Origin: Sphingopyxis sp.
Lineage (GTDB): Bacteria; Pseudomonadota; Alphaproteobacteria; Sphingomonadales; Sphingomonadaceae
Reading direction: 5' to 3'
Assembly: GCF_035565275.1 (NCBI RefSeq)
Contig: NZ_DATMST010000063.1
Span: 2,537-66,536 of the forward strand
Length of the DNA: 64,000 nt
Position numbers and translations under genes: made by a program
Shown: positions 3,322-44,612 of the stretch, piece by piece
How the letters are laid out: each line of letters opens with the position of its first letter
Numbering within the stretch: position 1 is the first letter of the stretch
The notes under the pieces: model-generated
Databases searched by the model: none
What the model saw: the letters and a program-made list of their open reading frames with translations, nothing else
What the model was told of the DNA's origin: nothing

Positions 3322-3741
3322 ATGAAACAGAAACTCGCTCTCTCCCTGGCCGCCTTGCTGCTTCCCCTTTCGGCAGCGGCGGCCATCGAGCCGACCGACG
3401 CGCCCGCAAGGGAACCGCGCGCGCTCGGCGTCGAATCGAGCATCGTCTTCCCGAGCGACAGTACGATCCGCAACTGGCAGGCCGACCGCGATCGCGGCAT
3501 CTGGATCGAAGGGCGGCGCGGCGAATGGTATTATGGCACCTTCGCCGGCTTCTGCCGCGACATCGATTTCGCGCAGGCGATCGGCTTGGAAACGCGCGGC
3601 GCCGGGCGGCTCGACAAATTCGCGTCGATCGTTGTGCGGGGCGATCGCTGCCAGCTATCGTCCTTCGTCACGTCGGCACCGCCGCCGACGAAGGAAGAAC
3701 GCAAGGCCGCGCGCGAAACCGACAAGACCGCGGAAAATTGA
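3322..3741 (+). CDS. Secreted hypothetical protein (DUF6491-like)
   Basis: Signal peptide MKQKLALSLAALLLPLSAAAA; two Cys; IRNW...WYY...C..IDFA..IG...LDKF pattern. Confidence 0.6.
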   Translation: MKQKLALSLAALLLPLSAAAAIEPTDAPAREPRALGVESSIVFPSDSTIRNWQADRDRGIWIEGRRGEWYYGTFAGFCRDIDFAQAIGLETRGAGRLDKFASIVVRGDRCQLSSFVTSAPPPTKEERKAARETDKTAEN

Positions 3742-37710: not shown

Positions 37711-38745
37711 ATGCGCGTCGACGCCTTCGATTTCGATCTGCCGAACGAACGTATCGCGCTGCGCCCAGCGCGGCCGCGCGATGCCGCGCGTATGCTGGTG
37801 GTCCACGGCGGGAACATCGCCGATGCCGGGGTGCGTGACCTGCCGACATGGTTGCGCGCGGGCGACTGCCTCGTCTTCAACGACACGCGCGTCATTCCCG
37901 CGCAACTCGAAGGCCGCCGGGGGGATGCGAAGATCGGCGCAACGCTGCACAAGCGGATCGACCTGCGCCGCTGGCAGGCGTTCGTGCGCAACGCAAAGCG
38001 GCTGCGCGTCGGCGAGACGGTCGATTTCGGCGCGGGGGTCGAGGCGCTCGCCGAGGAGCGGCTGGCCGACGGCAGCTTCATCCTTGCCTTCGGGGGCGAC
38101 GAGCCGGTCGAACTGCTGCTCGAGCGGGCGGGCACGATGCCGCTACCCCCCTATATCGCAGGCAAGCGCCCGACCGACGAAGATGATCGCAGTGACTATC
38201 AGACGATGTTCGCGCGCGAGGATGGCGCGGTCGCGGCGCCGACCGCGGCGCTGCACTTCACCCCCGAACTGCTCGGCGCGCTCGCCGCGGCGGGTGTCGC
38301 GACCGAGACGCTGACGTTGCACGTCGGCGCGGGCACCTTCCTGCCGGTGAAGGCCGATGACACCGACGACCATGTCATGCACGCCGAATGGGGGCGGATC
38401 GAGGCCGACACCGCCGCGCGCCTGAATGCGGTGCGCGCGGCGGGTGGGCGGGTGATCGCGGTTGGCACCACCAGCCTGCGCCTGCTCGAAAGCGCGGCGC
38501 AGGACGACAGCACGATCGCGCCCTTCGCGGGCGACACTGCGATCTTCATCACCCCGGGATACCGCTTCAAGGCGATCGACGGGCTGATGACCAATTTCCA
38601 TCTGCCACGCTCGACGCTCTTCATGCTCGTCAGCGCGTTGATGGGGCTGGAGACGATGCAGGCGGCTTACGCTCACGCCATCGAAAGCGAATATCGCTTC
38701 TACAGCTACGGCGACGCGAGCCTGTTGCTGCCGTCCGCGCGCTGA
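37711..38745 (+). CDS. queA: tRNA preQ1(34) SAM ribosyltransferase-isomerase
   Basis: [55 protein letters not shown]. Confidence 0.98.
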
Positions 38746-38919
38746 GCAAAGGGGCCGGCACGGGTCCGAACATCGCGGATGATCGCCCTATTTTTCGCGC
38801 AACGACGAAATAGGAACATATGGCGAACATTTTCGCTTTCCTACATTATTCCGGCACCATAGCCTCCCCGACATCCGAAGCGAAAAGGCGCCCTTCGGGC
38901 GCGAATCAGGGGAAAGCCG

Positions 38920-39144
38920 ATGAAGAAATTTCGTCTGCCGGTGCTGGTGCTGGCGTTGCTGGGGATGGGGCCGGCGGCGATGTCCGCCGAGACGCTTGCC
39001 TACAGCTATGATGCCAAAGGCCGGCTGGTGAAGGTCGTGCGCACCGGCAGCGTGAACAACACTGTCACCGTCGAATACGAGCATGACAAGGCCGACAATC
39101 GCACGCGATTGAAGACGACGAACTCGCCCAATCCGCCGCCGTAA
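38920..39144 (+). CDS. Small secreted single-YD-repeat protein (74 aa)
   Basis: Signal peptide MKKFRLPVLVLALLGMGPAAMSA, then YSYDAKGRL...VEYEHDKADNRT, i.e. two RHS-type YD motifs. Confidence 0.8.
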   Translation: MKKFRLPVLVLALLGMGPAAMSAETLAYSYDAKGRLVKVVRTGSVNNTVTVEYEHDKADNRTRLKTTNSPNPPP

Positions 39145-39196: not shown

Positions 39197-42100
39197 ATGC
39201 AAACATCACGCAAACCGGGCGCCCGCCGCGCCCGTCGCTTTCTGTCGTCCGCCGCATGGCTGCCGTTCGCGGTGCTGGCACTGGGCCTGCCCTCGCCGGT
39301 TCGGGCGCAAGACGCACCCGAACCCTATCGCAACGATGACGTCTATGGCGTTGATCTGACCACTGGTAGTTTCAACGTGAAGCTTCTTGAAGGTAGGATC
39401 GGTCCTAGCGATGGCGGTGTAACGTTGGTTCGTTATTCGGGCCGTGGCGGCTATGAAAATAACTGGACCGGAGTACTTAATCGGACCAACGTGGACGGCC
39501 AAACGCGTATTAACATCAGTTTCGGAAATGTGTCTGCCAAGTTTACTCTTGGCTCCGGAGGAGTGTGGACTTCGGACAAATCTGATGGGGCGACCCTCAC
39601 CGAAACGGTCTATGATCAAACGTACAGGGCGGAATATCTTTATCGGGCAGCTGACGGAGCCGAAGTTGTCTTTAAAACGACGCCTTTCATCTCGAACATG
39701 TATCCGACTACCGGCACTGTCACATATAATTGCGCACGAGGCCCTGCGTCGCATTGCGCACTGCCCGTCTCGATGAAGCAAGCAGATGGACAGAAGTTCA
39801 TCCTGTCCTATGACACGAGCTATAGCTGTTTGCCTGGACCGGTGGGCTCGCAAAATTGCTCGGTCGGCGTTGCCCATGGCGCACAGGTTTCATCTTCTTC
39901 TGGTTATGCTGTCTCCTTCGGTACTTCCGGAGCCACTTTATTCCATCCCGATGAAAGAACCTGCGCGGGGTTTAGCTGCACCTTCCCGCCTGACACGCCT
40001 CGCGTGACATATGCTTATCCAACTACCAACGTCCTCGAGGTCACGACGACGAACGGCGAGATATGGCGCTTTACCAAAGGTACAAGCGGGACCGGAAACG
40101 GCCGTATCGTGGGTATCCGGAGTCCAGGCGCAACCAGCGATACGACGGCGATCGCCTATGACAGCAGCGGCCGGGTCACGTCCATCACCGAAGACGGCGT
40201 GACGAAGACCTATAGCTGGGGGACGTCGGGCGGAAATACGGTGGTCAATACGACCGAAGGCGGAACCGACACGGGTCAGGTGGTTTCGAATCCGGCCGTG
40301 GGCCAGCCCACGAACGTGACCAATGGCGCTGCGCAGACTATTACTTACCAATATGACACGTCGGGCCGTCGTACGCGGACGACGATGCCCGAGGGAAATT
40401 ACGTCCACACGACCTACGATGCGCGCGGCAATGTGACCGAGACGCGCGCGGTCGCGAAGCCGGGAAGCGGACCCGCTGATATCGTCACTACGGCAAATTT
40501 CGACGCGGCTTGCACCAATCCGGTCAAGTGCAACAAGCCGAACTGGACGCAGGACGCGCTCGGTAACCGCACCAACTATACTTACGATCCGACGCACGGG
40601 CAGGTGACGAGGGTCCAATTGCCTTCTCCGACCGCCGATGCAGTTGGAGCCGAAACCGGCGTGCGGCCTGAAATCAACTATGGGTACACCGGCATATCGG
40701 TCGCGAGCGGCACCGTGCATAAGCTCACGCAGATCACGACCTGTGCGACCGCGGCGACTTGCAGCGGTACGGCGAACGAGACGAAGGTGACGATCGGTTA
40801 CAATGATCGATTGCTGCCAACGACCGTTACAACGGCTGCGGGCGATGGCTCGATCAGTTCGACCACCACCTATACCTATGACTGGCTGGGCAATGTCACC
40901 AGCGTTGACGGTCCGCTCGCCGGAACTGACGACACGACCTATTATTTTGGCTCGGCCGACTTACCAGCGGGCATCATCTATCCCGATCCCGACGGTGCTG
41001 GCCCGCGTCCGCGACGGGCGGAGCGGCGAAATTATGTGAATTGGACGACGCTCGAGTCGATCTCAATCGGCACAGTTACGGGTACAGCCCTGACCGACTT
41101 GACCGGCATGACCGCGCAGCAGACGATCAGCTACACCTACGACAGCAACAAGAATATCGTCAAGGACGTGACCTCAACCCCGTCGGGAACGGTGAGCGTC
41201 GTCCAGCACAGTTATGACGCCAAGAAACGGCGGACATGCACCGCGCTGCGCATGAACCCCGCGACGTGGAGCGCACTGCCCGCCAGCGCGTGCACCGCGG
41301 CGACGGCGTCGGCGACCTATGGCCCCGACCGCATCACGCGCACCAGCTATGACGCCAACGATCGCGCGACCAAGGTCGAAACCGCGGTTGGCACGGCCGC
41401 CGCCGCCGACGAACTGCGCGCAGCTTATACCGCGAACGGGCAGATCGACCATGTCATCGACGCCGAAAGCAACCGGACGAGCTATATCTACGACGGGTTC
41501 GACCGGCTGTCGCAGACGCGCTATCCCTCGGCCACCAAGGGTGCGAACAGCAGCAACGCGAGCGATTATGAGGGGCTGAGCTATGACGCGCGGAGCAGCG
41601 TGACGCAGCGCCGCCTGCGCGACAACACGGCGGTCGGATACAGCTACGACGATCTTGGCCGGCTGACCGGCAAGGACCTGCCGGGCAGCGAGCCCGATGC
41701 GACCTATGGTTATGACCTGCTGGGCCGGCCGGCGACTGCGGTGCAGGATGGCCAGACACTCTCCTTCGTCCATGACGCCTTGGGGCGGAAAACCGGCGAG
41801 AGCATTCCCTATCTGGGTGCGACGGGTTACGCCTATGATGCGGCCGGGCGGCGGACCAGCATGAGCTATCCGGGCGGCGTGCTGACGGTCAATTACGACC
41901 ATGATGTCACGGGCAATGTCACCGCGATCCGCGAAAACGGCGCGCCATCCGGCGCGGGCGTGCTCGCGACCTATGCGTTCGACGATCTGGGACGGCGTAT
42001 GAGCGTGACGTTCGGCAACGGCAGCACGCAAAATTTCACCTATGATCCCGCGTCGCGGCTGGAGACGTTGACCAATAATCTGGGTGGGGCGGTGACGACG

Positions 42101-43423
42101 CACGACCTGACGCAGACATTCGCCTATAATCCGGCGAGCCAGATCGCCAGCGTCATGCACAGCAACGACGCCTATGCGTGGCAAGGCCATTATAACGTCG
42201 ATCGCGCCTATGTCGCCGACGGGCTCAACCGCATCATGAGCGCGGCTGCCACGAGCATCGGCTATGACGCGCGCGGCAATCTGTCGATGTCGGGCAGCGA
42301 CAGCTACGGTTATGACAGCGAAAACCGGATGACGGGCGCGCCCGGCGGCACGACGCTGCACTATGATCCCGCGGCCCGGTTGAAGCGGATATATTCGGCC
42401 GCGGGGGGAACGACCTGGTTCGGCTATGACGGTGTCGACCGGACCATCGAACTGGATGTCGTCGGCACGGTGCTGCGCCGCAATGTCCACGGCCCCGGCA
42501 TCGACAATCCGATCGTCTGGTACGAGGGCGTGGGCCTCGGCGACCGACGCTTCCTGATGGCCGACGAACGCGGCAGCGTGGTGAGCGTCACCGACAGCGC
42601 CGGCGCGACGGTGGGGCTGAACAGCCATGACGAATATGGCAATCCGGCGCCGGGCAATGTCGGGCGGTTCGGCTATACCGGGCAGACGTGGCTGCCCGAG
42701 CTGGGGATGTGGTATTACAAGGCGCGGATCTATTCGCCGGTGCTCGGGCGGTTCATGCAGACTGATCCGATTGGATATGGCGACGGGATGAACTGGTATA
42801 ACTATGTCGGTGGGGATCCGGTGAATTTTGTGGATCCGTTGGGTCTAAGCTGTGATAATCCCGGAAATGGGGATTATTGTGACCCGTACAATCCGGGTGA
42901 CGATGGTCCAGAAATAAGCGTGATCGCCAACTGCAAGAAGGGTTGGACCTGCTCTGGAAAAGTAATTTGGTACCATATGGAACCTATATCTTTTGATCTG
43001 AGATATATAAATTACTCTTGCAATGCGGGCCGTCTTGTTTGTGAGCGAGAAAAGCCGAAGTATTGTTCGTCAACCACTTATCAGGTTGGAGATCTCATAG
43101 ATGACGTAGGTGGTGCCATTCAAGGAGCGGGGGCTGCTACCGTCGTGGCTGGAGGTGTGATCGGCGTCGCGACGGCATTTACTGGCGTTGGGGTCGGCGC
43201 TGGTGGTGGAGTGGCGGGAGTCGGCGGGACGATCTACACAGGCGGGACCGCCGTATCTGCGATCGGTAATGCAGTTAAATATGCAGGCGGTCAAAGTGGA
43301 GAGTTAACAGCCGCAAAAATGATAAGCCTTCCGATCGTTTATAAACTGAATGCCGTGCCGGGAATCATATCGGATAAAGTTCTATCGGAAACCATAGATG
43401 GGGCTTTGAGTGACCCTTGTTAG
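39197..43423 (+). CDS. RHS/YD-repeat polymorphic toxin-like protein with an N-terminal signal peptide
   Basis: Many YxYD.xGR repeats; RHS core YKARIYSPVLGRFMQTDPIG and DPVNFVDPLGL; variable 191-aa C-terminus; no PAAR/VgrG motif seen. Confidence 0.93.
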   Translation: MQTSRKPGARRARRFLSSAAWLPFAVLALGLPSPVRAQDAPEPYRNDDVYGVDLTTGSFNVKLLEGRIGPSDGGVTLVRYSGRGGYENNWTGVLNRTNVDGQTRINISFGNVSAKFTLGSGGVWTSDKSDGATLTETVYDQTYRAEYLYRAADGAEVVFKTTPFISNMYPTTGTVTYNCARGPASHCALPVSMKQADGQKFILSYDTSYSCLPGPVGSQNCSVGVAHGAQVSSSSGYAVSFGTSGATLFHPDERTCAGFSCTFPPDTPRVTYAYPTTNVLEVTTTNGEIWRFTKGTSGTGNGRIVGIRSPGATSDTTAIAYDSSGRVTSITEDGVTKTYSWGTSGGNTVVNTTEGGTDTGQVVSNPAVGQPTNVTNGAAQTITYQYDTSGRRTRTTMPEGNYVHTTYDARGNVTETRAVAKPGSGPADIVTTANFDAACTNPVKCNKPNWTQDALGNRTNYTYDPTHGQVTRVQLPSPTADAVGAETGVRPEINYGYTGISVASGTVHKLTQITTCATAATCSGTANETKVTIGYNDRLLPTTVTTAAGDGSISSTTTYTYDWLGNVTSVDGPLAGTDDTTYYFGSADLPAGIIYPDPDGAGPRPRRAERRNYVNWTTLESISIGTVTGTALTDLTGMTAQQTISYTYDSNKNIVKDVTSTPSGTVSVVQHSYDAKKRRTCTALRMNPATWSALPASACTAATASATYGPDRITRTSYDANDRATKVETAVGTAAAADELRAAYTANGQIDHVIDAESNRTSYIYDGFDRLSQTRYPSATKGANSSNASDYEGLSYDARSSVTQRRLRDNTAVGYSYDDLGRLTGKDLPGSEPDATYGYDLLGRPATAVQDGQTLSFVHDALGRKTGESIPYLGATGYAYDAAGRRTSMSYPGGVLTVNYDHDVTGNVTAIRENGAPSGAGVLATYAFDDLGRRMSVTFGNGSTQNFTYDPASRLETLTNNLGGAVTTHDLTQTFAYNPASQIASVMHSNDAYAWQGHYNVDRAYVADGLNRIMSAAATSIGYDARGNLSMSGSDSYGYDSENRMTGAPGGTTLHYDPAARLKRIYSAAGGTTWFGYDGVDRTIELDVVGTVLRRNVHGPGIDNPIVWYEGVGLGDRRFLMADERGSVVSVTDSAGATVGLNSHDEYGNPAPGNVGRFGYTGQTWLPELGMWYYKARIYSPVLGRFMQTDPIGYGDGMNWYNYVGGDPVNFVDPLGLSCDNPGNGDYCDPYNPGDDGPEISVIANCKKGWTCSGKVIWYHMEPISFDLRYINYSCNAGRLVCEREKPKYCSSTTYQVGDLIDDVGGAIQGAGAATVVAGGVIGVATAFTGVGVGAGGGVAGVGGTIYTGGTAVSAIGNAVKYAGGQSGELTAAKMISLPIVYKLNAVPGIISDKVLSETIDGALSDPC

Positions 43424-43433
43424 GAGCGGAAAT

Positions 43434-43616
43434 TTGAATAATATTATTAAAAAATATATAATGTACGCTAGTATATCTTCAATTTTATTTATATTAAGTA
43501 TATCTCATTTTTTTCGTTCAGATAAAAGTGCAGAAATTGTTTCGGTTTTTTCATCTATGATTATGTTTTTAATTATTCTATTATGCATTAAATACATAGT
43601 TAAGAAATTTCCGTAA
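43434..43616 (+). CDS. Candidate immunity protein, 60 aa with two TM helices
   Basis: AGGAG RBS then TTG 10 bp after the RHS stop; extremely AT-rich; MNNIIKKYIMYASISSILFILSISHFF...VFSSMIMFLIILLCIKYIVKKFP. Confidence 0.7.
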   Translation: MNNIIKKYIMYASISSILFILSISHFFRSDKSAEIVSVFSSMIMFLIILLCIKYIVKKFP

Positions 43617-43632
43617 GAGCATTTGGAATTAC

Positions 43633-43685
43633 GGTGACAGGTGCAACAATCCCCCATTGACGCGGGGATTGGGGCGCCTGTCGCC
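43633..43685. repeat. REP-like hairpin in front of the transposase stub
   Basis: GGTGACAGGTGC...GCGCCTGTCGCC outer stem, AATCCCC/GGGGATT inner stem. Confidence 0.65.
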
Positions 43686-43765
43686 TGATTCCAACCAGCC
43701 GCGCGTGATTGATCCATTGCGGCGCCACGTGATTGACGGGCGCTCGCAGTGTCCCCACCATGCCC

Positions 43766-43825
43766 ATGGCCCGGCTGCGCCGCATCGTCCTGCCCGGCAT
43801 TCCGCATCATGTGACCCGGCGGGGC
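43766..43825 (+). pseudogene. N-terminal stub of a RAYT/IS200-like (Y1 HUH) transposase
   Basis: MARLRRIVLPGIPHHVTRRG matches the recalled family N-terminus (MAR.xRxxxPGxxHHVTxRG); similarity stops after 20 codons and the frame ends at 43903. Confidence 0.72.
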
Positions 43826-43859
43826 AGACCTCGAGAGCACTTGTTACGCGCCTCACTCC

Positions 43860-44612
43860 TCACCCCAGCCGGCCCGCATACACCCCCATCGCCGCGGCAA
43901 TGAACTCCGCGCACCCCGGTAACTCGGGATGGTCATAGGTGCCGCGGAATTCGGAGTTGTCGGCATAATAGCGGCCAAGGCGCCTGAACGCCGCGGCGTC
44001 GGGGGTCCAGCTGTGCGAGACCCAGCGATAATGGCGGCCGGTCACCTCCTGCACCGCGTCGGACGCGGGATCGGCGCCTTCGCGGAACAGGTGCTGGAAA
44101 TCGGCGCGGATCGCTTCCATCTCTTCTTGGATCGCGGCGACCTGTTCCTTGCTGAAGCTTCGCGCCTTTGCCGCTGCCGCCGCGACGGCATCCTTGCCCC
44201 AGAAGGCTTCGGCCTCGCGCTGCCAGCGGTCGCGCGTTTCGGGGGCGATGCCGGCGTAATAGTCATTGTCTTCCATATGCTCGTCCTTTTCCAGTGATGC
44301 GATCGTGCGATCGATGGTGTGGATGAGGGTGCGGTAGTGGTCGATCCGGCCTTCGAGTGCCGCGCGGTGCTGGCGGAGCGCCGCGAGCGGGTCGAAGCCG
44401 GGATCGTCGAGCACGGCGGCGATCTCCGCCAGCGGCAGGCCGAGCTCGCGGTAAAAGAGGATCTGCTGCAGCCGCAGCAGTTCCTCCTTGCCGTAATAAC
44501 GATAGCCATTGGCGCCGACATGGCCGGGCTTCAGCAGTCCGATCGCATCATAATGATGCAGCGTCCTGACGCTGATGCCCGCCGCTCTTGCGACTTGCCG
44601 AACCGTCCGCAT
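43860..44612 (-). CDS. MerR family regulator with a TipAS domain (TipA/Mta-like)
   Basis: ISVRTLHHYDAIGLLKP...GYRYY, LQQILFYRELGL; C-terminal HYRWV...LGRYYADNSEF. Confidence 0.9.
   Translation of the reverse strand: MRTVRQVARAAGISVRTLHHYDAIGLLKPGHVGANGYRYYGKEELLRLQQILFYRELGLPLAEIAAVLDDPGFDPLAALRQHRAALEGRIDHYRTLIHTIDRTIASLEKDEHMEDNDYYAGIAPETRDRWQREAEAFWGKDAVAAAAAKARSFSKEQVAAIQEEMEAIRADFQHLFREGADPASDAVQEVTGRHYRWVSHSWTPDAAAFRRLGRYYADNSEFRGTYDHPELPGCAEFIAAAMGVYAGRLG

Follow-up and report, generated by a model that had tools for sequence, protein, structure and literature searches.

The window analysed here is a 64,000-nucleotide stretch of a Sphingopyxis sp. genome (RefSeq assembly GCF_035565275.1, contig NZ_DATMST010000063.1, positions 2,537 to 66,536), which belongs to a draft assembly of 347 contigs (95% complete, 4.5 Mb). 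Between queA and a gene for a MerR/TipAS regulator it carries about 5.1 kb of DNA made up of a mini-RHS gene, an RHS gene with its toxin tip, an immunity gene, a hairpin and the stub of a transposase gene. The hairpin and the stub are the subject of this analysis. We read them as the decayed 5' end of a TIRtron, of which a repeat dimer, an 80-nt leader and codons 1-20 have survived, and put the probability of this reading at about 0.87. A TIRtron consists of a gene for a terminal inverted repeat (TIR)-associated tyrosine transposase, or TIRYT, flanked by inverted repeats, many of which share the motif GGGGWSAS (Di Nocera, De Gregorio and Rocco 2013, PMC3733652). The element type itself is already known, and what is new is the broken Sphingopyxis copy. 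The complete element would have been a gene for an enzyme of about 222 aa acting on single-stranded DNA, a Y1/HUH protein like the REP-associated tyrosine transposases (RAYTs), bracketed by inverted end-repeats of about 34 bp. Nothing survives beyond codon 20, so the HUH motif, the catalytic tyrosine and the downstream repeat are all missing; the break lies 33 bp from the MerR stop codon. The features of the locus are as follows.

39197-42846, plus strand: RHS core (context) of a protein with a Sec signal, reaching to the core-end motif DPVNFVDPLGL and forming the conserved flank to the left of the variable cassette
42847-43423, plus strand: variable C-terminal toxin tip, with lower GC content and no homology to orthologous loci
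43410-43616, plus strand: presumed immunity gene, an AT-rich open reading frame (ORF) of 68 aa for a two-helix membrane protein, GC 0.25-0.34, ending 8 bp before the repeat
43625-43660, plus strand: first TIR copy, full-length (GGAATTACGGTGACAGGTGCAACAATCCCCCATT), which is the TIRYT end-repeat and forms the left arm of the hairpin
43664-43692, minus strand: second TIR copy, inverted and degenerate (in reverse complement GGAATCAGGCGACAGGCGCCCCAATCCCC), which forms the right arm
43686-43765, plus strand: leader, 80 nt from the hairpin to the start codon, holding the box GATTGATCC
43766-43826, plus strand: TIRYT stub, codons 1-20 plus one base, with the HUH motif and catalytic tyrosine missing
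43827-43859, no strand: unassigned filler, 33 bp between the deletion or rearrangement breakpoint and the MerR stop codon
43860-44612, minus strand: MerR/TipAS regulator (context; Pfam TipAS 98 bits, MerR_1 60 bits), against which the element is clipped

The stub starts with an ATG at 43766, exactly 80 nt beyond the hairpin, and its frame encodes MARLRRIVLPGIPHHVTRRG. Past this peptide the frame turns to unrelated residues and reaches a stop codon at 43901-43903, overlapping the 3' end of the MerR/TipAS gene, which is convergent with the stub and has its own stop codon at 43860-43862 on the minus strand. An earlier reading of this DNA from its letters alone (the sequence-only reading) had described the nested hairpin, the ATG, the change of frame and the overlapping stop correctly. 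It had also remarked that the stub was missing from the ORF listing, which is true at the default cut-off of 60 aa; when 30 aa was used, an ORF at 43733-43903 appeared. The peptide is identical at 16 of 20 positions to the N-terminus of a 223-aa congener protein that is positive for Pfam Y1_Tnp (pairwise BLASTP, E = 4e-10), which bears out the proposal that the stub encodes the N-terminal end of a Y1 (HUH) tyrosine transposase of the RAYT-like kind. At the DNA level the stub shares 77-86% identity with TIRYT genes and relics of relatives at their 5' ends, and this homology ends at 43826, placing the breakpoint after codon 20. These alignments establish the identity, the truncation point and the orthology of the stub. 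The 33-bp filler that follows showed no homology to TIRYT relics, nor to the queA-MerR junction of relatives. A tblastn search of the whole assembly with the full-length congener protein returned the stub as the only significant match (E = 2e-4), and a six-frame search of the assembly with PF01797 gave no match. The TIRYT enzyme is thus absent from the assembly. Since the stub itself lacks catalytic residues, the fragment is dead and, with no intact Y1 transposase elsewhere in the assembly, the relic is unable to move or cut anything by itself now.

The hairpin occupies positions 43633-43685. Its outer stem is formed by GGTGACAGGTGC (43633-43644) pairing with GCGCCTGTCGCC (43674-43685) and its inner stem by CAATCCCC (43647-43654) pairing with GGGGATTG (43664-43671), so that, from 8 bases past the immunity ORF, the order reads GGAATTACGGTGACAGGTGCAACAATCCCC, a 9-nt loop and GGGGATTGGGGCGCCTGTCGCC. 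Folded as DNA, the hairpin reaches -19.1 kcal/mol (z = -5.3), and 0 of 200 shuffled sequences folded equally well. By its sequence, it is a head-to-head dimer of the TIRYT end-repeat in which the second copy is degenerate. The same 29-33 nt as in the first copy are present at positions 1934-1966 of another contig of this genome (C329) and in many congeners, and the same dimer hairpin was found in the genomes G045, G131, G062, G084, G092 and G110, giving seven loci with the window. The leader box GATTGATCC is common to the orthologous relics, as seen in an alignment with G045, G131 and G062.

The intact relatives reveal what the stub once was. Full-length congener TIRYTs measure 220-226 aa, compared with 165 aa for E. 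coli TnpA_REP, an extension of about 85 aa, and score 30-32 bits with Pfam Y1_Tnp (cut-off 23) and 68-71 bits with NCBIfam REP_Tyr_transpos. Their best match in the PDB is TnpA_REP (4ER8, E = 9e-4), with which the HVH and the Tyr of RYVALNPV align in the homologues from G007, G004 and G068. In these three genomes and in a Sphingorhabdus metagenome-assembled genome (MAG; locus L119), inverted copies or arrays of AATTACGGTGACAG... lie on both sides of the intact genes. The repeat that flanks the intact 220-226-aa genes of the congeners reads GGAATTACGGTGACAGGTGCAAC..., and the right-hand repeat overlaps the last codons and the stop codon of the gene. The hairpin belongs to the transposase, as the sequence-only reading had supposed, and is made of two inverted copies of the repeat that brackets the intact congener genes. 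Of the 8 positions of the published TIR motif, 7 agree with the repeat core GGTGACAG. The protein, RAYT-like and longer than classical RAYTs, the inverted repeats around its gene, of which the right-hand one overlaps the gene's 3' end, and the occurrence of the repeats as singles, dimers and clusters in low to moderate numbers are all shared with TIRtrons. The window differs in keeping only the 5' repeat dimer and 20 codons. Its residues 1-20 lie upstream of the HUH motif, so that a Y1/HUH domain is not present in this copy; descent is seen in the homology of the stub, and the flanking repeats are seen in the intact relatives. TIRYTs have been equated with subclass 2.1 of the TnpA-Y1 superfamily, an equivalence that is probable, and a C-terminal helix-turn-helix (HTH) has been reported for this subclass (Quentin et al. 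2018, PMC6006769). In the literature searched, neither the Sphingopyxis TIRYT family nor any link of TIRYTs to RHS, toxin or defence cassettes was described.

Several points weigh against this identification. The scores of the full-length relatives with REP_Tyr_transpos stay below the NCBIfam equivalog cut-off of 80. An HTH like that of subclass 2.1 was not detectable with Pfam at E <= 10 in the C-terminal extension of the full-length TIRYTs. The stub alone had no match in Pfam or NCBIfam, and neither had a 51-aa orthologous relic, because both are too short for such profiles; the TIRYT assignment thus rests on homology to full-length relatives. With 347 contigs and 95% completeness, the assembly could also hide an intact TIRYT in a gap. 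Finally, compensating changes in the stem and the stability of the sense strand in 4 of 5 queA-linked loci suggest that the hairpin may not be purely neutral debris.

Repeat copies were counted across the genus. Of the 121 genomes of the genus, 31 contain a 19-mer of the repeat, whose reversed control gave 1 hit, and a 13-mer of the repeat core occurs in 0-12 copies per genome, with 0 for the reversed control. Most copies are clustered in a few loci, chiefly around a TIRYT gene or downstream of RHS genes. The genome of the window has two, the hairpin itself and a half-copy (left arm only) on contig C329. The label of a REP-associated transposase, which the sequence-only reading had used, consequently holds at the level of the superfamily but not in the sense of classical dispersed REP or REPIN sequences, the element being a TIRYT/TIRtron with few, clustered copies. 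REPtrons and REPIN-RAYT systems (E. coli TnpA_REP with REP/BIME; Pseudomonas fluorescens REPINs; Nunvar 2010, Bertels and Rainey 2011, Ton-Hoang 2012) share with it the enzyme superfamily, cognate repeats that flank the gene and inverted repeat doublets forming a long, REPIN-like hairpin. However, a single repeat of the window type is not a palindrome and lacks the GTAG tag, its few clustered copies contrast with tens to hundreds dispersed between genes, and the TIRYT relatives fall short of the equivalog score. Moreover, TIRYT homologues of 65-90% identity occur across genera, including one Betaproteobacterium, which points to horizontal movement, not strict vertical descent. A classical REP/REPIN-RAYT was rejected: there are only the two copies in the genome, one of them half a hairpin, and the copies in congeners are few and clustered.

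Insertion sequences of the IS200/IS605 type (IS608, ISDra2) have in common with the window Y1 HUH chemistry on single-stranded hairpin ends and perhaps a defined element edge beside a short AT-rich word, the window repeat starting with AATTAC. IS608 inserts 3' of TTAC. Such elements differ in that their ends are not inverted repeats, their TnpA is shorter and they form identical multi-copy insertions. They were rejected in view of the inverted-repeat ends, the protein of about 222 aa and the lack of another copy in the genome.

TIRYTs 67-73% identical to the Sphingopyxis one were also encountered in Acidovorax delafieldii (a Betaproteobacterium), Hoeflea and Phenylobacterium, and many TIRYT copies lie on very short contigs or at contig ends. 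The occurrence outside Sphingomonadales and these contig positions suggest horizontal movement and, in some genomes, multi-copy status. In other TIRYT clades of the same order (G023, G001, G039, G031) the end-repeats differ, namely AATAAATAGGGACAGTCCCTATTTA (a palindrome) and GGGGACAGTATA..., and the GACAG core seems to be the constant part across clades.

The history of the window copy can be followed at orthologous sites. In G004, G011 and G007, queA and MerR/TipAS converge, their 3' ends overlap by about 20 bp and no RHS module lies between them. At this empty site queA ends in ...LLLPRQSDRSA-stop and MerR in ...ADRSL-stop; the RHS module of the window is inserted exactly here (38733-38920 and 43827-43862), and the two proteins end in ...LLLPSAR-stop and ...AGRLG-stop instead. 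The order queA, mini-RHS, RHS is found in G045, G084 and G131, and G062 has only a 3' fragment of queA ahead of the mini-RHS gene. All four genomes share the hairpin and the leader box with the window and also contain a TIRYT pseudogene, about 50 codons long, which variously carries a lost start or internal stops. Thus, the relic is older than these species. An older truncation at about codon 50 is common to the species, and the window copy has been clipped again after 43826. The TIRYT unit forms part of a module of mini-RHS, RHS, toxin tip and immunity gene, at whose 3' end it belongs. In G045, G131 and G062 the relic is followed on its right by ECF sigma, FecR-like and GGDEF-EAL genes, and this DNA does not lie beside the relic of the window. 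Only scattered matches to it (64-72%) were detected in the genome, on other contigs, so the deleted segment is not reconstructable.

In G062 (C1:305300-309900, at about 3325-3453 of the locus), the last 43 or so codons of queA stand before the mini-RHS gene, with unrelated low-GC DNA upstream. Apparently the RHS module was moved or copied with 130 bp of queA attached.

We then considered the position of the relic relative to the toxin cassette. In the ORF listing the RHS ORF spans 39197-43423; it is the single RHS gene of its genome. Up to 42846 the DNA of its core is 75.7% identical to the RHS genes of G045 and G131, and from about 42850, at the toxin tip, GC drops to 0.43-0.53 from a level of about 0.65. 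Two blocks of the window align with the orthologous loci of other Sphingopyxis species, one at 40006-42846, which reaches the RHS core-end motif DPxGL, and one at 43625/43629-43826; the tip and immunity gene between them have no homology to these loci. Homology is thus lost over tip and immunity gene and comes back exactly at the repeat, in agreement with the claim that hairpin and stub mark the right junction of a swapped toxin cassette. Across eight RHS loci, 780-1150 bp separate the core end from the repeat. This DNA is largely unrelated, only two pairs of loci sharing part of it, and in each of the eight it stops at the 5' edge of the repeat, (GG)AATTACGG. These comparisons show that the relic constitutes the conserved right border of a replaceable RHS tip/immunity cassette. 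Homologues of the toxin tip were also sought in 300 genomes of the family, and the window copy alone was recovered, a result that is uninformative on whether the repeat travels with the cassette. An orphan RHS fragment in the Sphingorhabdus MAG (L119, 1270-1870) has end-repeats on its borders, and its glycine-rich tip and small membrane ORF seem, by eye, to resemble the tip/immunity type of the window.

How the relic might act as a border can be ordered by confidence. Most confidently, repeat, leader and relic would serve as right-hand homology for replacement of tip and immunity gene by double crossover, with the RHS core as the left-hand homology; alternatively, repeat and relic may be a former cleavage or joining site from the time when tips were replaced. 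In second place, the hairpin may be retained as a stem-loop at the 3' end of the RHS-immunity mRNA. In third place, cleavage at the outer edge of the repeat, while the enzyme still existed, may have made the precise junctions, which would turn the TIRYT into a participant in cassette exchange instead of a bystander. A similar arrangement is the Rhs-associated mobile DNA of enterobacteria, with which the window shares a transposase-type gene and repeats at the Rhs 3' end, as well as tips and immunity genes that are replaced while the core is kept. It differs in having DDE enzymes where those here are Y1/HUH, and the right boundary of the window type is a precise, conserved repeat edge. The enterobacterial elements are reportedly of the H-rpt/ISAs1 type, and orphan rhs-CT/immunity arrays are said to be rearranged by homologous recombination (Jackson 2009, Koskiniemi 2014).

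The second of these roles also stands as an explanation in its own right: the hairpin may be kept as an RNA 3' stem-loop that protects or ends the RHS-immunity transcript, a role proposed for many REP-type repeats, its transposon origin being incidental. This is compatible with the TIRtron reading, and we consider it possible, although the odds are clearly against it. The hairpin starts 16 nt past the immunity stop codon and is conserved in the seven loci with compensating changes in the inner stem (ATCCCC/GGGGAT, CTCCC/GGGAG, TTCCCT/AGGGAT); a MAFFT alignment leaves the inner stem out of register, and each hairpin was folded on its own. With RNA parameters, the plus (sense) strand folds better than the minus strand by 6-11 kcal/mol in 4 of 5 queA-linked loci, owing to G-U pairs. 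Many TIRtron-type repeats likewise sit downstream of genes and are plausibly transcribed (Di Nocera 2013, PMC3733652). On the other hand, a promoter/terminator scan found neither a terminator-like site nor a U-tract at the hairpin, and a scan of 43300-44000 against Rfam at E <= 1 gave no match. The loci of G084, G092 and G110 show no strand asymmetry, and the asymmetry represents few independent events because the queA-linked loci are related by descent.

The linkage of the element to RHS genes was analyzed from both sides. The genus contains 47 RHS core ends, in 28 of the 121 genomes. In about half of the roughly 25 that were examined downstream, the repeat, a TIRYT gene or relic, or both follow in the same orientation within 1-2.5 kb of the core end; these loci comprise the queA-linked loci plus others (G006, G068, G092, G072, G117). 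The second sampling, which started from the enzyme, yielded 78 loci with TIRYTs 65-90% identical to that of G007, from Novosphingobium, Sphingomonas, Sphingorhabdus, Parablastomonas and others. Upstream sequence sufficed for an assessment at 47 loci with intact close homologues, which come from several sphingomonad genera and in part are assigned to family or class only. At 11 of these an RHS core end lies 0.7-1.8 kb upstream, in the same strand orientation, whereas RHS lies downstream of the TIRYT in only 1 of 52 loci. Two culturable strains, Sphingopyxis jiangsuensis XHP0097 and Sphingomonas asaccharolytica NBRC 15499, have RHS-linked copies. Two genomes have two RHS-TIRYT pairs each. At the genus-wide RHS density, and with shared ancestry ignored, a random position would have RHS upstream in this way with a chance of about 1 in 10^4. 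Since module and element may move as one, not all of the linked loci count as independent. The sequence-only reading had named a hairpin that is unique and unlinked to RHS loci as a refutation. It withstands this check only across genomes; in the genome of the window the full hairpin is unique and the half-copy lies beside a Shedu gene, not an RHS gene.

This half-copy (in the locus C329:600-2600) is situated 5-14 bp past the stop codon of a DUF2199 gene, with a low-GC Shedu (SduA_C) gene opposite. The arrangement of DUF2199 stop codon and repeat is common to this genome, G008 and G007, while the gene across the repeat differs: Shedu here, a RelA/SpoT-domain gene in G008 and another low-GC gene in G007. 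The DUF2199 locus has the appearance of a small defence hotspot bounded by the repeat. For 39 repeat copies, the mean GC of the 300 bp outside the 5' edge is 0.50, compared with 0.60 on the inner (3') side, and GC drops below 0.5 on the 5' flank in 15 of 39 copies and on the 3' flank in 2 of 39. Repeat arrays alternate with small low-GC ORFs in G077, G110, G092, G129 and G068, and repeats cut RHS core fragments and the 5' codons of TIRYT genes (9, 11, 18) at defined points.

TIRYT genes interrupted by their own end-repeat, a copy of which follows codon 9, 11 or 18, were noted in G101, G068 and L119, at about 4195 of locus L053 (G101), at about 1115-1170 of the reverse complement of L066 (G068) and at about 75-100 and 3644-3678 of L119. 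The break at codon 11, in which ...TTGCCCGG is followed directly by AATTACGG, was found in two different genera, and the native TIRYT sequence at this point (CCCGGCATTCCGC) resembles the start of the repeat (CCGGAATTACGG).

From the linkage and the neighbours of the repeat, one may ask whether the repeat behind the immunity gene is, or recently was, the working 3' boundary of a TIRYT cassette-exchange system, a proposal that we judge unlikely as a whole. The TIRYT in it could be resident or could come in with foreign DNA, and the stub would be the remnant of its gene. It draws on the polar linkage, on the fraction of genus RHS loci with repeat or TIRYT relic after the cassette, and on the fact that variable DNA always ends at the same repeat edge. 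Further support comes from the same edge adjoining three different low-GC genes at the DUF2199 locus of three species, from the low-GC ORFs and lower 5' GC at other copies, and from the defined cuts in RHS core fragments and TIRYT codons. Against it, no excision or insertion product, circle junction or pair of empty and filled sites differing by the cassette alone was seen, the genome lacks the enzyme, and many of the linked loci may share ancestry and hence not be independent. No repeat was found upstream of the RHS module (mini-RHS gene) in the window or its relatives, which means that the module is not a repeat-bounded composite unit. A wider form, equally doubtful in our estimate, is that the TIRYT clade and its end-repeat of about 34 bp may provide a portable cassette boundary for warfare and defence genes in Sphingomonadales. 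The TIRYT would then cleave single strands of DNA at the repeat's outer edge, immediately in front of GGAATTAC or within it, and join them to other DNA. Units with the repeat at their end, consisting of RHS tip/immunity pairs, Shedu, RelA/SpoT-like or other low-GC genes, would thereby be put in place or exchanged, in loose analogy to integron cassettes with their attC boundaries, though by HUH chemistry. The window's stub would be the recombinase gene of such a site, now burnt out. A more mundane alternative is that the element prefers AT-rich, dispensable DNA and rides along with the module, ordinary homologous recombination between the flanks doing the rest. This accounts for the enrichment, but less well for the exactness and polarity of the junctions. 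A part of repeat and TIRYT in cassette exchange is thus plausible but unproven.

The idea that the hairpin is a site of some other system (integron attC-like, or a DDE end of a Tn7 or Tn402 relative) with the ORF there by chance can be set aside as highly improbable: copies do occur at the borders of low-GC cassettes, sometimes in close arrays with sub-repeats (AATTACGGTG)n that recall arrays of transposase-binding sites, but in every intact case the repeat brackets Y1 genes in inverted orientation, the TIRYT stop codon lies inside the right-hand repeat and the ORF is homologous to TIRYT genes at the protein and DNA level. Integron attC sites and Tn7-like or Tn402-like ends had been weighed for the cassette-like spacing and the sub-repeats, and were dropped because the repeats bracket Y1 genes. 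For a few copies the neighbouring ORFs were scanned with Pfam or inspected by eye, and neither an integrase nor another transposase was present there; the R''/L''-L'/R' boxes of attC, sought by eye only, were not found.

Returning to the broken TIRtron, the stub by itself is ordinary genomic debris, and its value is that of a marker. The relic dates and delimits the replaceable part of an RHS toxin locus, at which no fewer than five tip/immunity cassettes, largely unrelated to one another, have been swapped between the same two conserved flanks at a single chromosomal site. The suggestion that such elements may help to shuffle RHS tips finds circumstantial support in the polar TIRYT-RHS linkage, against which stands a genome that has no enzyme left. 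More broadly, the stub is one instance of a strong and directional association between barely studied Y1/HUH transposases and RHS toxin modules. If this association is functional, it would bear on how the tips of polymorphic toxins are swapped cleanly and on what purpose RAYT-like genes serve.

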